From positions 207,843 through 271,842 of the forward strand of contig JAMPXW010000001.1 of the NCBI GenBank assembly GCA_023701005.1: a stretch of 64,000 nucleotides of DNA, given 5' to 3'. The stretch comes from Burkholderiales bacterium (GTDB taxonomy: Bacteria > Patescibacteriota > Minisyncoccia > Phycocordibacterales > UBA9973). Below, piece after piece: positions 718 to 62,120 of the stretch. A model generated the notes under the pieces. It did not search any database. It was not told the origin of the DNA and saw only the letters and a list, made by a program, of their open reading frames with translations. The translations under genes were made by a program, and so were the position numbers. Every line of letters starts with the position of its first letter. Position 1 is the stretch's first letter.

Positions 718-1485
718 ATGATAATAATAAAAACAAAAGAAGAAATTGAAATATTGAGAGAAGGAGGGAAGCGTTTGGCTACTGTTCTTCATAAAGTTAA
801 AGATATGGTAAAGCCTGGAATTTCTACTTGGGAATTAGATAAATATGCAGAGAAATTAATTAGAGACATGGGTGACTATCCAGCATTTTTGAATTACAAA
901 CCCGAAGGAGCAGATTTTCCTTATCCTGCATCTTTGTGTGTTTCAGTAAATAATGAAGTTGTACATGGTATTCCCAAAAAAGAAAAGATTTTACAAGAAG
1001 GAGATATTGTATCTATTGATCTAGGCTTGCGACACAATGGATTGTATACAGACATGGCCATGACAGTCGGTGTGGGAGAGATAAGCAATGCATCTAAAAA
1101 GCTTTTAAAAACTACTGAGCAGGCTTTGATGGTGGGCATAGAGGCTGCACAATGTGGCAATAAGACTGGAGATATAGGTCATGCGATAGAAGGTTTTGTA
1201 CGTCCTCATAAATACGGTATTGTAGAGGTTTTGTCAGGTCATGGCGTCGGTAAATATATTCATGAAGATCCTTATATACCAAATTTTGGTAAAGCAAACA
1301 CAGGAGTAAAACTCGTGAAGGACATGGTGATAGCTATCGAACCAATGTTGAATAATGGTACCAAGAATGTAGTTGTTGATAATGATGGATATACTTTCCG
1401 TACAGCTGATGGAAAAAGAAGTGCGCATTTTGAACATACTATTTTAATTACAGATGGCGAACCTGAAATTTTAACTAAAATTTAA
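718..1485 (+). CDS. map: Methionine aminopeptidase, type I
   Basis: 255-aa translation with the MAP pita-bread fold, including the metal-ligand region FVRPHKYGIVEVLSGHGVGKYIHEDP. Confidence 0.9.
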   Translation: MIIIKTKEEIEILREGGKRLATVLHKVKDMVKPGISTWELDKYAEKLIRDMGDYPAFLNYKPEGADFPYPASLCVSVNNEVVHGIPKKEKILQEGDIVSIDLGLRHNGLYTDMAMTVGVGEISNASKKLLKTTEQALMVGIEAAQCGNKTGDIGHAIEGFVRPHKYGIVEVLSGHGVGKYIHEDPYIPNFGKANTGVKLVKDMVIAIEPMLNNGTKNVVVDNDGYTFRTADGKRSAHFEHTILITDGEPEILTKI

Positions 1486-1526
1486 AAAAATATTTAAAAA
1501 GTAATTCTATAAATTTTTTAAATAGC

Positions 1527-4307
1527 TTGTGTTATAATAAATATATGGAAGGGTCATTTTTAAACGAAATGCCAAAATTTAAAACTCCGGAAGAAGAGTT
1601 AATTTATTTGCGTGAGCATGTTGCTAGAAAAGAACAAGAGTTGAAAGACAATGGACATCATGAACAAGCGAATGAAAATGCTGTAAAACATATCATAGAA
1701 CAATACAAACAAAAACCAGCTGAAGAAATATTGCATAAAGATCATTTATTAAAAAAAGATGATAGGGAAGCTATTGTGTTACAGCTAAAACCAGAACTCC
1801 ATGACACGATAATGGAAGAGCTTTTAGGAGTAGTAATAACAAAGGGTATTAGAAATGCACTATCTGTTGTTGAAAAGATGTCAGACCCTCATATAGATGA
1901 TGATTTCCATAGAATATTGGTTCAATATTTAAAAACGGGGCAGGTTTTTGATTTGAAGGAAGGCACTCCGTTGTATAAATCTTTGAATATGACTCTTTTT
2001 GAAATTACTCTTCCTCCTCCTAAAGAAGAAGGAGATAAAGTGAAAGGTTTTAAAGAATTTATAGGCGCAATGGAGCAATTTTATGCTGGCATGAATTCTA
2101 TTTCAGAAGGAAAGAATAATGAAAAAGAAAATTATTTTACTTTAGAAGTTGCTTTAAGTAATGCTTCAGATGAAGTTGTGGTTTTTGCTGCAATACTAAA
2201 CAAACATGTTTCTTTATTTGAAAAACAAGTTCTTTCTTTTTATCATGATGCAAAAGTTCATGAAGTGAAAGATGATTATAATATTTTCAATGAGAAGGGA
2301 GGTTCTGCTGGGGCTTATGCTAGTTTCTCTGAGAGACCACTTTTACCCATAAAGACATATGATCAAATAGATCATGATCCGATGAATATCATTTTGAATG
2401 TTTTTTCTAAGTTGCAGACAGTAGGTGAAGGGGCTGCTATACAGCTAGTAGTAGCACCAGCGGGGGAGAAGTTTATAAATGATTTCCATTTGATTTTAGA
2501 TGATATAAAAAGTGGCACATCTGTCAAACATGCTGCAGATAATTTCTATAAATTTAATAAGGCTTTCTTAAAGGTTTCTAAAGAACTTATTTTTGGTTTC
2601 AAAAAAGAAGATGAAAATAAAAAAGAGAAATATATTCCAGGTAGGCGTGCCGTCGATGAAGGTGCAATAGAAAAGATAACCAATAAGATGAAAAGCTCTA
2701 TAATGAAAGCAAACATAAGAGTCATAACATCTGCAGATACGAAAGACAGGGCAGAAAGCATCTTGCAAGAGATAGAATCTTCCTTCAATCAATTTACAGA
2801 GCCAGCAAGCAATTCTTTCTTTTTTGAAAAATTAAAAGACAATGATTTAAAGAAACTTTTCCACGATTTTTCTTTTCGTATTTTTGCAGATGATAAGATA
2901 CTTCCAATGAATCTAAAAGAGCTATCTTCAGTATTTCATTTTCCTGTGGGCGTCGGCAGTCAACCACAGTTAAAAGAAGCAAAAGCAGGCATCGCCCCAG
3001 CTCCTATGGAGATGAAAAACGAGGGGATAGTGTTAGGAATAAATAGTTATAGAGGTAAAGATACTACAATACAAATGTCTCGAGAAGACAGAATGAGACA
3101 TTTTTATGTCATAGGGCAGACGGGTACAGGTAAAACAAACATAATGTTAAATATGATAACTCAAGATATAAAGAATGGTGATGGTTGTTGTTATATTGAT
3201 CCTCATGGTACAGATATTCAAACTATTTTATCTCGCATTCCTAAAGAACGTATTGATGATGTTATATATTTTGATCCAGCATATACATTGAGACCAATGG
3301 GGCTCAATATGCTCGAATATGATCCAAATTATCCAGAACAGAAAACTTTTGTTGTGAATGAAATGATGGGTATCTTTAATAAACTCTTTGATATGAAAGT
3401 CGGGGGCGGGGCTATGTTTGAACAATATTTTAGAAATAGTGCATTTTTGGTTATGGAAGATCCAGAGTCAGGTTCTACATTACTTGAGATTACTCGTGTT
3501 TTGGCTGATAAAGAATTTAGAGATATGAAATTGGCTAAATGTAAGAATCCTATCATTAAACAATTTTGGATATCAGCAGAGCAAACTTCAGGAGATCAAT
3601 CTTTGGCAAACTTTGTTCCTTATATTTCTTCTAAATTTGATAATTTTATTTCTAACGATATCATGCGTCCAGTTGTTCTACAGCAAAATTCTGTATTTAA
3701 TTTTAGGAAAATAATGGATGAGAAAAAAATTCTTTTAGTAAATCTTTCAAAGGGAAGATTGGGAGATATAAATGCAAATTTGATAGGTTTGGTGCTTGTG
3801 GGGAAGATACAGATGGCGGCTCTTTCTAGAGTAGATATGTTTGGCAAGCCTATGAATGATTTTTATCTTTACATAGATGAGTTTCAAAATGTGACGACTG
3901 ATTCCATCTCATCTATTCTCTCTGAGGCTAGAAAATATAGATTGTCTTTAAACATTGCGCATCAATACATAAGCCAGCTTGAAGAGAATATAAAAAATGC
4001 AGTTTTTGGCAACGTCGGATCTATGGCAGTATTCCGAGTTGGGTCTGAAGATGCTACATTTTTGGAGCCTAAATTTAAACCAACTTTCAGCGCTCAGGAT
4101 ATAACAAAATTGGATAATTATAATGCTTATATGAGTATGCTTGTAAATGGTCAACCTACGAAGCCATTTAACATAAAGACTCTTGCCCCAGAGAGGGGAA
4201 ACGTAGAGATTGTTGAAAATCTAAAACAACTTTCATATCTTAAATATGGACGTGATCGTGATGAAGTAGAAAAAGAAATAATGCTTCGATATTCCACGAT
4301 GCAGTAG
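1527..4307 (+). CDS. Large P-loop ATPase of the VirD4/TraG/TraD (type IV coupling protein, FtsK/HerA) superfamily, with a ~500-aa N-terminal region of unknown function
   Basis: Walker A motif YVIGQTGTGKTN, Walker B motif LYIDEFQNV, and a conserved AHQYISQL motif typical of coupling-protein ATPases. Confidence 0.55.
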   Translation: MCYNKYMEGSFLNEMPKFKTPEEELIYLREHVARKEQELKDNGHHEQANENAVKHIIEQYKQKPAEEILHKDHLLKKDDREAIVLQLKPELHDTIMEELLGVVITKGIRNALSVVEKMSDPHIDDDFHRILVQYLKTGQVFDLKEGTPLYKSLNMTLFEITLPPPKEEGDKVKGFKEFIGAMEQFYAGMNSISEGKNNEKENYFTLEVALSNASDEVVVFAAILNKHVSLFEKQVLSFYHDAKVHEVKDDYNIFNEKGGSAGAYASFSERPLLPIKTYDQIDHDPMNIILNVFSKLQTVGEGAAIQLVVAPAGEKFINDFHLILDDIKSGTSVKHAADNFYKFNKAFLKVSKELIFGFKKEDENKKEKYIPGRRAVDEGAIEKITNKMKSSIMKANIRVITSADTKDRAESILQEIESSFNQFTEPASNSFFFEKLKDNDLKKLFHDFSFRIFADDKILPMNLKELSSVFHFPVGVGSQPQLKEAKAGIAPAPMEMKNEGIVLGINSYRGKDTTIQMSREDRMRHFYVIGQTGTGKTNIMLNMITQDIKNGDGCCYIDPHGTDIQTILSRIPKERIDDVIYFDPAYTLRPMGLNMLEYDPNYPEQKTFVVNEMMGIFNKLFDMKVGGGAMFEQYFRNSAFLVMEDPESGSTLLEITRVLADKEFRDMKLAKCKNPIIKQFWISAEQTSGDQSLANFVPYISSKFDNFISNDIMRPVVLQQNSVFNFRKIMDEKKILLVNLSKGRLGDINANLIGLVLVGKIQMAALSRVDMFGKPMNDFYLYIDEFQNVTTDSISSILSEARKYRLSLNIAHQYISQLEENIKNAVFGNVGSMAVFRVGSEDATFLEPKFKPTFSAQDITKLDNYNAYMSMLVNGQPTKPFNIKTLAPERGNVEIVENLKQLSYLKYGRDRDEVEKEIMLRYSTMQ

Positions 4308-43324: not shown

Positions 43325-43412
43325 GGAGGCGTCGCATAGCGGTCTAGTGCGCAGACCTGGAAAGTCTGTGTGGGGAAACCCACCGAGAGTTCGAATCTCT
43401 CCGCCTCCGCCA
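43325..43412 (+). tRNA. tRNA-Ser (GGA), type II, CCA encoded
   Basis: Acceptor GGAGGCG/CGCCTCC, anticodon stem CAGAC/GTCTG with loop CTGGAAA, long variable arm, T-arm GAGAG-TTCGAAT-CTCTC, discriminator G plus CCA. Confidence 0.8.
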
Positions 43413-43416
43413 AATT

Positions 43417-44220
43417 GTGAAAAAGATAATCAAGAAAATAATCCTGTTAAACAAAAAAGAAGGGGAGACTCCTTTAGAAGCTTTAGAGAATTTTCGTGAT
43501 AAAAATCCTCAATATTTAAGTGTGCCTATGACTTATGCTGGAAGGTTAGATCCTATGGCCAGTGGGGTTCTTTTGATATTAGCTGGAGAAGAAACAAAAA
43601 ATAAGGAGAAATATTTGAACAAAGATAAAGAATATGAATTTGAAGTTTTGTTTGGTTTTAGTACTGATACTTTTGATATTTTAGGAAAAATTTCCGCTAG
43701 GCAAGACCTAGCGGAGAGCAAAGAAGTAAATGTAAAAGAATTAGAGAAAGAGATAAAAAAGAATATAAAAAATTTTGTTGGTGAAAGTATACAAAAATAT
43801 CCGATGTATTCTTCTAAAACAGTAAAAGGTAAACCATTATTTATGTATGCTAGAAATGGAGAAGATGTGGAGATCCCAGAGAGAAAGATTTTTATATATA
43901 AACTAAAATTAGAAAAAATAAGAATGATCGATAATAAAAAATTATTTAAAAATATAGAAAAAAGAATAAAAAAAGTTAAAGGGCCCGCCTCGACTCGCGG
44001 AGAGTCGACGCGAGGCGGGGATTTTAGGCAAAAAGAAATTTTAAAGATATGGGAAAATAATTTGAAGTTTAAAGATTTTAGATTTAAAAAGTTTTATATA
44101 GCTAAATTGAAAGTTAAATGTAGTAGTGGTACATATGTTAGGAATATTGCATATTCTTTGGGTAAAAAGTTAAATATTCCATCTTTGGCTTTTTCAATAA
44201 AAAGAACGAAAATATGTTAA
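43417..44220 (+). CDS. truB: tRNA pseudouridine synthase (TruB-like) carrying an in-frame 12-aa GC-rich insert (PASTRGESTRGG)
   Basis: Catalytic motif AGRLDPMASGVLLILAG (the pseudouridine-synthase catalytic Asp). Confidence 0.7.
   Translation: MKKIIKKIILLNKKEGETPLEALENFRDKNPQYLSVPMTYAGRLDPMASGVLLILAGEETKNKEKYLNKDKEYEFEVLFGFSTDTFDILGKISARQDLAESKEVNVKELEKEIKKNIKNFVGESIQKYPMYSSKTVKGKPLFMYARNGEDVEIPERKIFIYKLKLEKIRMIDNKKLFKNIEKRIKKVKGPASTRGESTRGGDFRQKEILKIWENNLKFKDFRFKKFYIAKLKVKCSSGTYVRNIAYSLGKKLNIPSLAFSIKRTKIC
43981..44020. repeat. 40-nt GC-rich imperfect palindrome (gggcccgcctcgactcgcggagagtcgacgcgaggcgggg) lying in-frame inside truB
   Basis: cccgcctcg pairs with cgaggcggg; inner cgactc pairs with gagtcg. 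About 80% GC in an AT-rich gene. Confidence 0.7.
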
Positions 44221-47917: not shown

Positions 47918-48664
47918 TTGGGAAAAAGTTCTTTTTGTGATATATTTTCATTAATGGATAAAGAGACAAAAAAAGGAAAAGAACACCCGCTTTCTTTGGT
48001 TGTAAATGAAGCAGTAAAGATTTTTACTGATTTGGGTTTTGAGGTGGCTACTGGTCCAGAGCTAGAAGATGAATGGCATAATTTTGACGCTCTAAATTTC
48101 CCGAAAGATCATCCTGCTCGTGACATGCAAGATACTTTTTTTATTAAAAACAAGCCAGGATATGTATTACGTACTCATACATCAAATACACAAATTCATT
48201 TTATGGAAAAATTTGTTAAAGATGGTAAAAATCCACCATTCGCGATAATCGTTCCTGGAAAAGTTTTCAGAAATGAAGCAACGGATTCAGGGCATGAAAT
48301 GCAATTTTATCAACTTGAAGGCTTAATGATAGGTGCTAACATAAGCGTAGCTCACATGAAAGGAATTTTACTTGAATTCTTTAAAAGGTTTTTAGGAAAA
48401 GATGTAGAAATCAGATTACGTCCTAGTTTCTTTCCTTTTGTTGAGCCGGGATTTGAAGTAGATGTAAAACATGGAGACAAATGGATGGAGCTCTTGGGCG
48501 CTGGTATGGTTCATCCAAAAGTTTTAGAAAATTGTGGCATTGATTCTAAAAATTATCAAGGTTTTGCTTTTGGTTTTGGTCTTGATCGTATGGCAATGAT
48601 AAAATTTGGAATTCCAGATATTCGTCTTTTTTATCAAGGAGATTTAAGATTCAATCAATTTTAA
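47918..48664 (+). CDS. pheS: Phenylalanine-tRNA ligase alpha subunit (catalytic core only, 248 aa)
   Basis: Class II aaRS motifs: FPKDHPARDMQDTFF (motif 1), FRNE (motif 2), GFAFGFGLDRMAM (motif 3). Confidence 0.85.
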   Translation: MGKSSFCDIFSLMDKETKKGKEHPLSLVVNEAVKIFTDLGFEVATGPELEDEWHNFDALNFPKDHPARDMQDTFFIKNKPGYVLRTHTSNTQIHFMEKFVKDGKNPPFAIIVPGKVFRNEATDSGHEMQFYQLEGLMIGANISVAHMKGILLEFFKRFLGKDVEIRLRPSFFPFVEPGFEVDVKHGDKWMELLGAGMVHPKVLENCGIDSKNYQGFAFGFGLDRMAMIKFGIPDIRLFYQGDLRFNQF

Positions 48665-48668
48665 TTTT

Positions 48669-50504
48669 ATGAAAATTTCTTATAATTGGCTTAAGTGGTA
48701 TATTCCAGATGTTCCTAAACCAGAAGAATTAGTAAATCTTTTTACTTTTCATGTTTGTGAAGTTGAAAGTTTTGACAAAACGGCGGATGGTGATTTTATT
48801 TTTGATATAAAAATTTTACCAGATAGAGCACATGATTTACTCAGTCATTTTGGAGTGGCTCGGGAGATCTCTTCTTTACTTGATATTCAATTTATTGATC
48901 CAATTTTGAAGTATAAAAATCCACCATCAAAAGAGACTCAATTAATTATAGATGTTCAGTCTGAAAAATGTCGTCGCTATGTAGGTAGAATCGTTCGAAA
49001 TATAAAAATAGGTCCTAGTCCAGATTGGGTAGTAAAACATTTAGAATCAATAGGACAAAGAAGTATTAATAACATGGTAGATGCAGCTAATTTGGTAATG
49101 TATAATTGTGGACAACCCACGCATGTTTTTGATTTAAATAAGATGAATCAAGGTCTAATAGTAAGACAAGCAGAAGATGGTGAAGATATTACAACGTTAG
49201 ACAATAAAGAATTAAAACTAAAAACTTCAGATCTAGTAATTGCAGATTATTCTAAAGCTCTTGCTATTGCTGGTATAAAAGGAGGGAAGATAGCAGAGGT
49301 TGATAGTGAAACCACAGATGTTGTTTTAGAGGTTGCTAATTTTGATCCTACTTCTGTACGTAAAACTGCCCAAGCTTTAAATATTTTTACGGACGCAAAA
49401 AAACGTTTTGAGAATGATTTATCTCCAGAGTTATGTGATCGTGCTATGTTAGAATTTTCTGCTTTGATTTTAGAAATGTGTCCGGAGGCATCCTTTGAAG
49501 ATATTGTAGATATTTATCCAAAAAAACAAGAAATTAGAGAAGTATCTTTTAGTCTGAGAAAAATATCAAAAATTTTAGGTGTAGAAGTTTCTTTAGAAGA
49601 GATAAAAGATATTTTGCGAAGATATAATTTTGAATATATAGAAGATGGTGAGTTTATAAAAATAAAAATACCATTCATGCGATTTGATCTGAACATAGAA
49701 GAAGACATAGCAGAAGAAATAGGCAGAATAATGGGGTATGATAAAGTAAAGCCAAAAATTCCTGAAATAAAATTTACACCCAAGAGTAATACAATATATG
49801 AGAAGATTGTTTTTGTTAGGAATAAATTTTTGAATGATGGATATTCAGAAGTTATGACTTATGTATTTAGAGATAAAGGAGAAGTGGAAGTCCTTGCTTC
49901 TGCTTCAGATAAAAAGTTTTTAAGAACTAATCTCACTGACGGGCTTAAAGAGAGTTTAAAATTAAACCAACTTAATTCTCCCTTGCTTGAAATGAGTGAA
50001 ATAAAAATTTTTGAAATCGGAACTGTCTTTAAGAAAACTGGTGAAGAAATGCATGTTGCTTATGCAGATAAAAAAGAAATAAAAGAAATGAAATTAGAAG
50101 AATTTTGTTTTAATTCTCCTCTTGAGGAGTACCCAAAGGGGGAGGTGAAGTATTTCCACCCCGGCACAAGTGCCACCCCTCAAGAGGGGAATAAATTTAA
50201 ACCTTGGTCAATATATCCTTTCATCTCTCGTGATGTAGCTGTTTGGGTACCTGAGAGAGAAGATCCTTTAATATTAAAAAAATTGCTTATAGATAATGCC
50301 ACAGATCTTTTGATAAAAGAACCTTATTTGTTTGATTCATTTACAAAACCTGCCTCGACGCAAGGCGAGGATGGAAAAACTTCTTATGCTTTTAGGCTTG
50401 TTTTTCAGTCGTATGAAAGAACTTTAAAAGATGAAGAAATAAATGAAATTATGACTAATATAACCAATAAAATCAAGGAGAAAAATGATTGGCAGGTTAG
50501 GTAA
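48669..50504 (+). CDS. pheT: Phenylalanine-tRNA ligase beta subunit (short form), with two GC-rich palindromic patches lying in-frame within it
   Basis: B3/B4 domain (NNMVDAANLVMYNCGQPTHVFD), B5 domain and a C-terminal FDX-ACB-like domain; 611 aa. Confidence 0.85.
   Translation: MKISYNWLKWYIPDVPKPEELVNLFTFHVCEVESFDKTADGDFIFDIKILPDRAHDLLSHFGVAREISSLLDIQFIDPILKYKNPPSKETQLIIDVQSEKCRRYVGRIVRNIKIGPSPDWVVKHLESIGQRSINNMVDAANLVMYNCGQPTHVFDLNKMNQGLIVRQAEDGEDITTLDNKELKLKTSDLVIADYSKALAIAGIKGGKIAEVDSETTDVVLEVANFDPTSVRKTAQALNIFTDAKKRFENDLSPELCDRAMLEFSALILEMCPEASFEDIVDIYPKKQEIREVSFSLRKISKILGVEVSLEEIKDILRRYNFEYIEDGEFIKIKIPFMRFDLNIEEDIAEEIGRIMGYDKVKPKIPEIKFTPKSNTIYEKIVFVRNKFLNDGYSEVMTYVFRDKGEVEVLASASDKKFLRTNLTDGLKESLKLNQLNSPLLEMSEIKIFEIGTVFKKTGEEMHVAYADKKEIKEMKLEEFCFNSPLEEYPKGEVKYFHPGTSATPQEGNKFKPWSIYPFISRDVAVWVPEREDPLILKKLLIDNATDLLIKEPYLFDSFTKPASTQGEDGKTSYAFRLVFQSYERTLKDEEINEIMTNITNKIKEKNDWQVR
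50116..50189. repeat. GC-rich cluster of four short hairpins/palindromes inside pheT (ctcctcttgaggag ... ggtgaagtatttccacc ... ggcacaagtgcc ... cccctcaagagggg). The outer pair forms a 10-bp inverted repeat
   Basis: Read directly from sequence. Encodes ...EEYPKGEVKYFHPGTSATPQEGNK.... Confidence 0.55.
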
Positions 50505-61039: not shown

Positions 61040-61095
61040 TTGGCTCGGTGTGTTTTATGACGCACCGAGCCTTTTTTATTTAAATTTTAATTTTT
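61040..61095. repeat. Left copy of a 56-bp direct repeat; it contains a terminator hairpin (ggctcggtgtgttttatgacgcaccgagcc plus T-run). The right copy is 62065..62120, with 42 nt identical and then 2 mismatches
   Basis: Direct comparison of the two copies in the sequence. Confidence 0.85.
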
Positions 61096-62064: not shown

Positions 62065-62120
62065 TTGGCTCGGTGTGTTTTATGACGCACCGAGCCTTTT
62101 TTATTTGAATTTTAGTTTTT
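62065..62120. repeat. Right copy of the 56-bp direct repeat and terminator hairpin. Its distal end encodes the last five codons of the convergent 62101..63990 gene
   Basis: Identical to 61040-61081, then near-identical. Confidence 0.85.

Follow-up and report, generated by a model that had tools for sequence, protein, structure and literature searches.

Rickettsia palindromic elements (RPEs) are small palindromic repeats that reside in frame in many unrelated housekeeping genes of a reduced genome, contributing a conserved peptide to the host protein where its fold permits; copies also occur in intergenic DNA (PMC10969869). REPINs, the inverted doublets of REP units that RAYT transposases mobilise, consist of two inverted units separated by a short spacer, form one long hairpin, exist alongside singlets, make up within-genome sequence populations, and lack a classical target site duplication (TSD) (PMC3116915). 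The mobile GC clusters of yeast mitochondria are GC-rich palindromes in an AT-rich genome, with short terminal repeats at AT-rich targets and optional in-frame insertions in var1; they act as hot spots of recombination and gene conversion and shuffle into new clusters (PMC8811140). Bacterial MITEs (transposable elements of miniature size with inverted repeats), such as Correia/NEMIS, ERIC, and QMITE1, are likewise small and multi-copy and carry terminal inverted repeats, and some of them overlap open reading frames (ORFs) and create fusions (PMC10969869; PMC5896051). Here, we describe an 80-nt palindromic element inside pheT, the gene for the beta subunit of phenylalanine--tRNA ligase, on a 64-kb stretch of contig JAMPXW010000001.1 (the window, to which positions refer). 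We consider it likely that this segment is one copy of a family of dispersed, GC-rich, non-coding-type palindromic elements in AT-rich Paceibacteria/Nomurabacteria, selfish in nature and resembling RPEs and REPINs.

GC-rich families of hairpin elements reportedly also invade the AT-rich, compact mitochondrial genomes of sponges, fungi, and placozoans, occasionally including coding regions. Unlike the element described here, these are organellar, and we know of no evidence for their systematic in-frame residence in essential protein genes.

The palindromic segment of pheT

The segment consists of two inverted terminal arms of 15-17 nt, which enclose three hairpins. Its parts, and the shorter palindromes within them, are:

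48669-50504, + strand: pheT, phenylalanine--tRNA ligase beta subunit, 611 aa (from the ORF list; homologs with Pfam B3_4, B5, tRNA_synthFbeta, and FDX-ACB)
50113-50192, + strand: whole palindromic element, 80 nt (ATT...AAT), delimited by nhmmer profile, GC island, fold, and alignment
50113-50129, + strand: left terminal arm ATTCTCCTCTTGAGGAG, pairing with the right arm to form the closing stem
50116-50129: palindrome ctcctcttgaggag, inside the left arm
50132-50140, + strand: side hairpin H1 (CCCAAAGGG, cccaaaggg), a variable module
50141-50162, + strand: central hairpin H2 (GGAGGTGAAGTATTTCCACCCC), with conserved stem sequence and variable loop
50144-50160: hairpin ggtgaagtatttccacc
50163-50174, + strand: side hairpin H3 (GGCACAAGTGCC), also variable as a module and showing compensatory changes
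50163-50174: hairpin ggcacaagtgcc
50175-50192, + strand: right terminal arm ACCCCTCAAGAGGGGAAT, part of a right-half unit that is also found solo elsewhere
50176-50189: palindrome cccctcaagagggg, inside the right arm

The initial annotation had reported four GC-rich hairpins with a 10-bp terminal inverted repeat at this place and had regarded them as a MITE-like insertion tolerated in an essential gene. The four motifs are indeed present, each once in the window, but a fifth small hairpin (H1) had been overlooked. The inverted repeat is real and longer than proposed, with ATTCTCCTCTTGAGG (50113-50127) and CCTCAAGAGGGGAAT (50178-50192) matching at 14 of 15 positions, or 21 nt matching at 86%. 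The GC content of the element is 0.62, versus 0.32 in the window and 0.2-0.4 elsewhere in pheT. The net inserted unit comprises 78 nt (50115-50192), which correspond in frame to pheT codons 483-508 and encode the 26 residues SPLEEYPKGEVKYFHPGTSATPQEGN.

A 94-nt stretch around the element folds into a long closing stem enclosing the three hairpins, that is, a four-way junction, and this stem brings both flanks of the element together. Folding, proposed earlier as a check, gave z-scores of about -4 for both nucleic acids: -40.4 kcal/mol for RNA (z = -4.19) and -19.7 kcal/mol for DNA (z = -3.96), with none of 200 shuffles being as good in either case. The terminal 10-mer by itself was not over-represented within the window, and the significance of the segment comes from its fold, its composition, and more than 100 homologous copies elsewhere. 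A profile of 117 such copies matched positions 50113-50192 in an nhmmer search at E = 2.4e-21.

Alignment of PheT orthologs revealed that the three closest homologs (71-75% identity) are devoid of the segment and carry an AT-rich linker of the type FSLE.RSYNLEA instead. NSPLEEYP..G....TPQEGNKF was found at the same position in a patchy set of more distant Paceibacteria homologs, and the segment was confined to one Patescibacteria lineage rather than being conserved in PheT of unrelated taxa. In another genome, the element family occupies a second site in PheT, near residue 165 (locus L109), where the window PheT and all other homologs show a clean gap of ~30 residues. In four pheT genes, from genomes of 32-43% GC, the linker element is nearly identical at the DNA level, and third-codon identity amounts to 0.79-1.00 within the element versus 0.46-0.51 in the rest of pheT. 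Thus, all three codon positions of the element are conserved, yet synonymous sites of the host gene are saturated. This contrast implies that either the bases themselves are selected or the element is much younger than the surrounding genes.

PheT, the only host protein that we modelled, gave an AlphaFold2 model with a mean pLDDT of 82 on the basis of a 60-sequence alignment. Residues 489-510, encoded by the element, have a pLDDT below 50 and form one of two disordered stretches of PheT, located between strand 471-475/helix 476-479 and strand 519-528. In the model, the element peptide thus is a disordered linker that joins the catalytic-like core to the C-terminal FDX-ACB domain, and this lengthening of a flexible linker explains the element's toleration in an essential gene.

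Dispersal, insertion, and loss of the element family

Scanning 185,579 species-representative genomes with the exact pattern CTCCTCTTGAGG-N35-65-CCTCAAGAGGGG yielded 115 stretches in about 46 metagenome-assembled genomes (MAGs). This cross-genome search for the terminal pair, suggested in the initial annotation, showed copies both between genes and inside genes of at least 24 unrelated families. Copies belonging to one genome sit on different contigs or at different positions, and the maximum was 10 exact-pattern copies, on the 813-kb contig JBAZVG010000001.1. By label, the hosts are Nomurabacteria, Paceibacterota, Patescibacteria, some entries named 'bacterium' or 'uncultured bacterium', and a few Saccharibacteria; only one match, in L053, lies outside Patescibacteria-type MAGs, and it looks like a chance match. 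A profile search of the retrieved loci added further diverged copies and half copies.

Inside long ORFs, we found 69 of 122 copies, and the host ORFs form at least 24 unrelated clusters. Host genes encode PheT (two sites), UvrB, KsgA/RsmA, TGT, TsaD, PurD, RNase R, IF-2, DNA polymerase I (PolA), UvrD, LeuRS, phosphoglucomutase, a tyrosine integrase, a methyltransferase, and others. Many copies occupy inter-domain positions, such as the PheT linker, the junction of the exonuclease and polymerase domains in PolA, and the region preceding the anticodon domain in LeuRS. Some copies are located directly upstream of murB, prfA/B, and dnaK.

Gain and loss of the element can be followed in individual genes. 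In a gene for a UvrD-like helicase, L045 becomes colinear with the empty allele L138 upon removal of exactly 84 nt (core + 4). Insertions follow an xAT codon (Asn or Asp), which is host-derived in empty alleles; either TT...AA ends or an AT duplication of 2 bp would agree with this placement. In uvrB, L032 and L106 carry the element, and L077 (gene on the minus strand, about 1011-3095; 93% amino acid identity) has an 87-nt in-frame deletion between GGG triplets, with the terminal GGGGAT left as a deletion footprint. This loss of the element is recent and shows that copies can disappear through deletion in frame.

Copies within a genome also suggest recent copying or evolution in concert. Identical or 98.8-98.9% identical copies were found in the same genome in tgt and an intergenic site (JBAZOQ01), in pheT and tgt (JACQGC01), in tgt and pgm (JAPLXP01), and in ksgA and uvrB (CAZHDU01). 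The hypervariable hairpin H3 was shared by 9.5% of same-genome pairs, in comparison to 2.8% of same-site pairs across genomes and 3.9% of unrelated pairs. Greater likeness within genomes than between copies at the same site is a signature of recent copying, gene conversion, or both.

From these comparisons, we infer that the element is selfish, non-autonomous DNA that spreads within genomes. It would be copied into AT-rich sites right after an AT dinucleotide, with a net gain of the core plus 4 nt, and resident copies would later be homogenised by gene conversion. Survivors would be limited to copies that preserve the reading frame and come to lie where the surface loops of an essential protein are permissive. 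The conserved hairpins probably constitute a recognition structure, either folded single-stranded or cruciform DNA, for a putative trans-acting enzyme or recombination process.

Several observations weigh against spreading of selfish DNA. The evidence for mobility consists of comparisons only. A variable TSD was not detected at any of the boundary offsets tested in 119 copies; the best signal was a 2-nt duplication, with 30 matches observed versus 20.7 expected, and a fixed AT duplication may hide within the conserved ATT...AAT termini. About 1 Mb of loci contained neither a transposase or autonomous element with these ends nor any long element flanked by the two arms, and the ORFs scanned in 8-kb pieces around the copies did not include a Y1 transposase. 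Viral and phage collections (IMG/VR, GenBank phages) contained zero copies and thus gave no sign of a viral vector, and the 64-kb window harbors a single copy, as judged by nhmmer. The pheT copy stands in place of an ancestral, AT-rich linker of about 16 residues and is no pure addition; a clean empty site was not found there, as element-free relatives have a different AT-rich linker, and the cleaner pairs of filled and empty alleles came from the second PheT site, UvrD, and UvrB. Finally, the near-invariant core could reflect a host function rather than a constraint imposed by transposition, and part of its invariance stems from the exact search pattern, 24 bases of which are invariant by construction, in contrast to the remaining conserved blocks.

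These points also bear on the label given to the element. It shares with MITEs the short length, the multi-copy occurrence, and the terminal inverted repeats of 15-17 nt. However, MITEs are flanked by variable TSDs and can mostly be traced to a parent insertion sequence; the copies studied here gave no variable TSD, and about 1 Mb of loci gave no parent element. The earlier notion of an insertion tolerated in an essential gene is supported by the dispersed family with its in-frame genic copies, but the name MITE needs qualification, considering that no TSD can be separated from the conserved termini, that an autonomous partner was not found in the loci, and that the pheT copy took the place of an older linker. 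In compositional setting, recombination behavior, and in-frame residence, the element resembles the mobile GC clusters of yeast mitochondria. These clusters, in contrast, are organellar, about 30-50 nt long, and mostly intergenic, whereas the element is bacterial and larger, its multi-hairpin core is defined, and its targets are essential genes by the dozen.

Conserved structure, reading frame, and alternative explanations

The consensus of 117 aligned copies reads ATTCTCCTCTTGAGGAGTACCC-(H1)-GGGGGAGGTGGA-(loop)-TCCACCCCG-(H3)-CCACCCCTCAAGAGGGGAAT, and the elements are about 78-95 nt long. The closing stem (14-17 bp) and the central hairpin are almost invariant, and the termini are 95-99% conserved (119 copies). 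According to RNAalifold, GGAGGTGGA pairs with TCCACCCC in the H2 stem, and this pairing is retained in 113-117 of the 117 copies. The side hairpins vary in sequence. H1 occurs in 35 distinct variants, the long forms of which are perfect hairpins, such as CTCCGACnnnnGTCGGAG, and H3 in 62 distinct variants with at least 26 different stem sequences. Folding with at least 3 pairs was observed for 85% of H3 variants, versus 57% of chimeras made by joining halves from different variants and 38% of shuffles. Per-position pair tables for the H3 length classes revealed double, compensatory changes at many stem positions. The MAFFT/RNAalifold alignment had missed this covariation owing to length variation, and per-variant folding and length-class pair tables were used instead. 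Every H3 variant of the GT...CC classes carries a T-C mismatch at its second stem position (paired in 0/16, 0/5, and 0/5), a conserved non-canonical feature that could serve as a recognition mark.

The left half of the element is a diverged reverse complement of its right half. It can be described as a pseudo-doublet of inverted ~40-nt units, with the outer ends pairing as the closing stem, the inner ends pairing as the central hairpin, and each unit carrying its own variable side hairpin. Solo right-half units (TCCACCCCG-hairpin-CACCCCTCAAGAGGGGAAT) were detected 11 times in the loci (in L007, L029, L037, L058, L065, L071, L082, and L094), and solo left halves not once. L029:3227-3343 contains a symmetric doublet of two right-type units separated by a ~35-nt spacer (z = -8.2). 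This architecture is similar to that of REPINs in the inverted doublet of ~40-nt units, the additional presence of singlets, and the lack of a classical TSD. However, REPINs are extragenic by definition, whereas most copies of the element are intragenic and translated; moreover, the element is devoid of the 5' GTAG motif, and only right-type units occur singly.

Conservation of this kind might alternatively reflect a cis-acting mRNA structure useful to the host, which either causes a translational pause at domain boundaries or provides a site for a ribonuclease or RNA-binding protein. Of the alternatives, this one survives best, but we regard it as unlikely. It would agree with the extreme conservation of the core and the co-varying side hairpins, with the orientation of genic copies (63 sense and 6 antisense), with the inter-domain positions in PheT, PolA, and LeuRS, and with the Shine-Dalgarno-like motifs GGAGGTG and GAGGAG, seen directly in the element sequence. 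Yet the antisense strand folds as well as the sense strand or slightly better, and G-U pairs are more common on the antisense strand. We therefore rejected a structure specific to the sense RNA and attribute the fold to the DNA palindrome, not to the mRNA strand alone. In addition, intergenic copies flanked by co-directional genes are found in either orientation to those genes (18 versus 9), antisense genic copies are found in tsaD and rnr, the closest relatives do without the element, and it can be deleted. The presence of several unrelated element families in the same loops fits tolerance better than a specific function. Furthermore, the element remained unmatched by the covariance models of Rfam 15, including those for introns and ribozymes, even at E values up to 10.

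Across the whole window, gathering matches to Rfam were limited to the tmRNA and three tRNAs. A tRNA-like, ribozyme, or intron identity was dropped in view of the missing Rfam match, a closing stem too long for a tRNA, and the maintained reading frame.

The frame-compatible length class, which reads SPLEE...TPQEGN, accounts for 46 of 51 sense copies situated at least 40 codons inside ORFs and for 24 of 53 intergenic copies (Fisher p = 8.5e-7). All internal sense genic copies are free of stop codons. Selection against frame disruption explains which genic copies survive. Being overwhelmingly of one orientation and one frame-compatible length class, and free of stops, genic copies are read through, adding about 26-31 residues to the host protein.

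In this respect, the element behaves like RPEs: it is present in many copies per genome, stays in frame and stop-free in unrelated genes, and resides at a fold-compatible site, as judged for PheT only. Unlike RPEs, it belongs to a different phylum (Patescibacteria), measures about 80-95 nt instead of about 100-150 bp, and is distinguished by its doublet architecture with a four-way junction, its hypervariable, co-varying side hairpins, and clear homogenisation within genomes. We thus call the element RPE-like by behavior, on the basis of published descriptions, and do not claim membership in a Rickettsia RPE family.

The same frame and stop constraint argues against programmed translational bypassing, as known for the 'byp' elements of Magnusiomyces mitochondria, or removal of the segment from the RNA. 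The closing stem, which joins both flanks, is in line with skipping, as is a general likeness to the clusters of GC-rich hairpins that AT-rich genomes carry in coding regions (PMC8811140). However, a skipped element would neither have to keep the frame nor to avoid stops, contrary to what was observed in the internal sense copies, and no intron or ribozyme family was matched. We hold skipping to be very improbable.

Selection of a lineage-specific peptide, with the segment being a vertically inherited linker module of PheT and its hairpins a by-product, is largely refuted, and we give it hardly any credence. It is true that several lineages have SPLEEYP...TPQEGN at one and the same position of PheT and that the element is stop-free and in frame. 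But the same DNA is present between genes as well as in the genes of at least 24 unrelated proteins, and its occurrence in PheT is patchy, with the closest homologs lacking it. AlphaFold predicts no structure for the encoded peptide, and all three codon positions of the element are conserved, with the synonymous sites of the host being saturated. The conserved block GGGGGAGGTGGA yields GGGG if the H1 loop has 4 nt and GEVD if it has 3 nt, the frame being restored further on. As two frames are thus used for the same conserved bases, their conservation cannot be ascribed to selection on the peptide; judged by the aligned copies, it is the nucleotides and the hairpin structure that are conserved, not the peptide. 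An exhaustive HMMER search with the 33-residue window peptide, meant to count host proteins, returned nothing at E up to 0.001, this query being too short to indicate absence, and a tandem-peptide query, likewise too short to be informative, gave 3 short matches among 10 candidates.

An assembly or binning artefact, such as a chimeric read or a contaminating fragment, can practically be dismissed: although the window derives from a MAG with a clearly wrong organism label (Burkholderiales), the identical pheT sequence is present in an independent Logan assembly, and homologous copies occur in NCBI, JGI, and ENA assemblies produced by different groups.

Other GC-rich inserts and significance

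In the window (GC content 32%), pheT is adjoined upstream by pheS (47918-48664) and followed downstream by gyrB. The PheT protein is assigned to a 'Burkholderiales bacterium' MAG at NCBI, but gene order, composition, and all close homologs point to Paceibacteria/Nomurabacteria, and the assignment looks like a binning or taxonomy error. Sequence comparison indicates that the closest relatives of the window are Patescibacteria of the Paceibacteria/Nomurabacteria type.

Further hairpins were also observed in the window. A second insertion in pheT, at 50349-50369, is a clean GC-rich hairpin of 21 nt, CCTGCCTCGACGCAAGGCGAG; it encodes PASTQGE, falls within the FDX-ACB domain at the loop of a beta-hairpin, and is missing from the closest homologs. 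In L003, from another lineage, this loop holds another GC-rich hairpin. Downstream of a tRNA gene (43325-43409), AT-rich intergenic DNA contains a hairpin that is long, imperfect, and GC-rich, GGGCCCGCCTCGACTCGCGGAGAGTCGACGCGAGGCGGGG (43975-44021), with a stem, GCCTCG/CGAGGC, similar to the mini-insertion in pheT. Two identical terminator-like hairpins of 30 nt, GGCTCGGTGTGTTTTATGACGCACCGAGCC, lie 1,025 nt apart, at 61042-61071 and at 62067-62096, and a T run follows the first copy.

Other PheT alleles carry different GC-rich, palindromic in-frame inserts, both in the same linker and at a site about 25 residues upstream. Such inserts of other families are found in the pheT genes L124:4001-5860, L125:4001-5893, and L126:624-2465, exemplified by TTCTTCTGAAGAG...CTCTTCTGAAGAA in L126 and by a 16-bp hairpin, CTCAGCCCAGACCTT...AAGGTCTGGGCTGTGAG, in L124 and L125. 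Similarly, among 80 metagenomic relatives of the UvrD-like helicase (L127-L206), the loop FVATKILEILD-(X)-LSEIAVLYRAN is hypervariable. It comprises few empty alleles (L138 and L144), one further allele of the element family with different side hairpins, and many alleles with other GC-rich inserts, which add up to about 50 extra residues in the alleles shown and form recurring peptide families, e.g., G[VL]SQADGPRGSA..DSDP. Three of these other inserts were folded, and all consist of a closing stem with side hairpins (z = -6.6, -3.7, and -4.7).

ORFs between clustered copies of the element are housekeeping genes, with the exception of one locus for a DUF559 nuclease. There (L071:2715-3182, minus strand; L082:178-648, minus strand), the N-terminus of an ORF for a DUF559 protein (PD-(D/E)XK, Vsr-like nuclease) is encoded by a half element, and the ORF is bracketed by further element copies. 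L071 and L082 represent a single orthologous locus in two genomes, and a general association with DUF559 is not claimed. L095:1576-5070 (plus strand) is a LeuRS gene with inserted Ser_hydrolase and DUF559 domains and an element copy near residue 975.

It is tempting to speculate that the element is one of a large, unrecognised class of GC-rich multi-hairpin replicators in Paceibacteria, which colonise permissive loops and replace one another there, perhaps by a mechanism that would be new for bacterial repeats, such as structure-directed endonuclease- or recombination-driven copying (gene-conversion 'homing') of the 40-nt unit. We put this forward tentatively, as a minority possibility; hints of such copying come from the exclusive occurrence of right halves as solo units, the T-C mismatch of H3, and the N-terminus of the DUF559 protein derived from a half element.

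Genomes of the candidate phyla radiation (Patescibacteria) are regarded as extremely streamlined, and, to our knowledge, selfish palindromic DNA that resides in frame in essential genes has been considered nearly peculiar to Rickettsia. Literature searches, incomplete in coverage, returned no description of such elements in Patescibacteria, although an earlier description elsewhere is possible. The element represents an apparently undescribed family of small palindromic repeats in tiny-genome Patescibacteria. It extends the known cases by an analogous but architecturally distinct, REPIN-like system in core genes of tiny genomes, including those for aminoacyl-tRNA synthetases, IF-2, PolA, UvrB, and UvrD, with several sister families common to the same hot-spot loops. 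For annotation and phylogenomics, this means that GC-rich inserts inflate and scramble alignments of marker proteins. For mobile-DNA biology, the conserved core, co-varying hairpins, half units, and concerted evolution make up a tractable comparative data set for finding what copies elements when no transposase is evident. With regard to protein evolution, the elements are a steady source of new surface loops, and if the wider class of replicators exists, the housekeeping proteins of ultra-small genomes would have their surfaces remodelled by them continuously.

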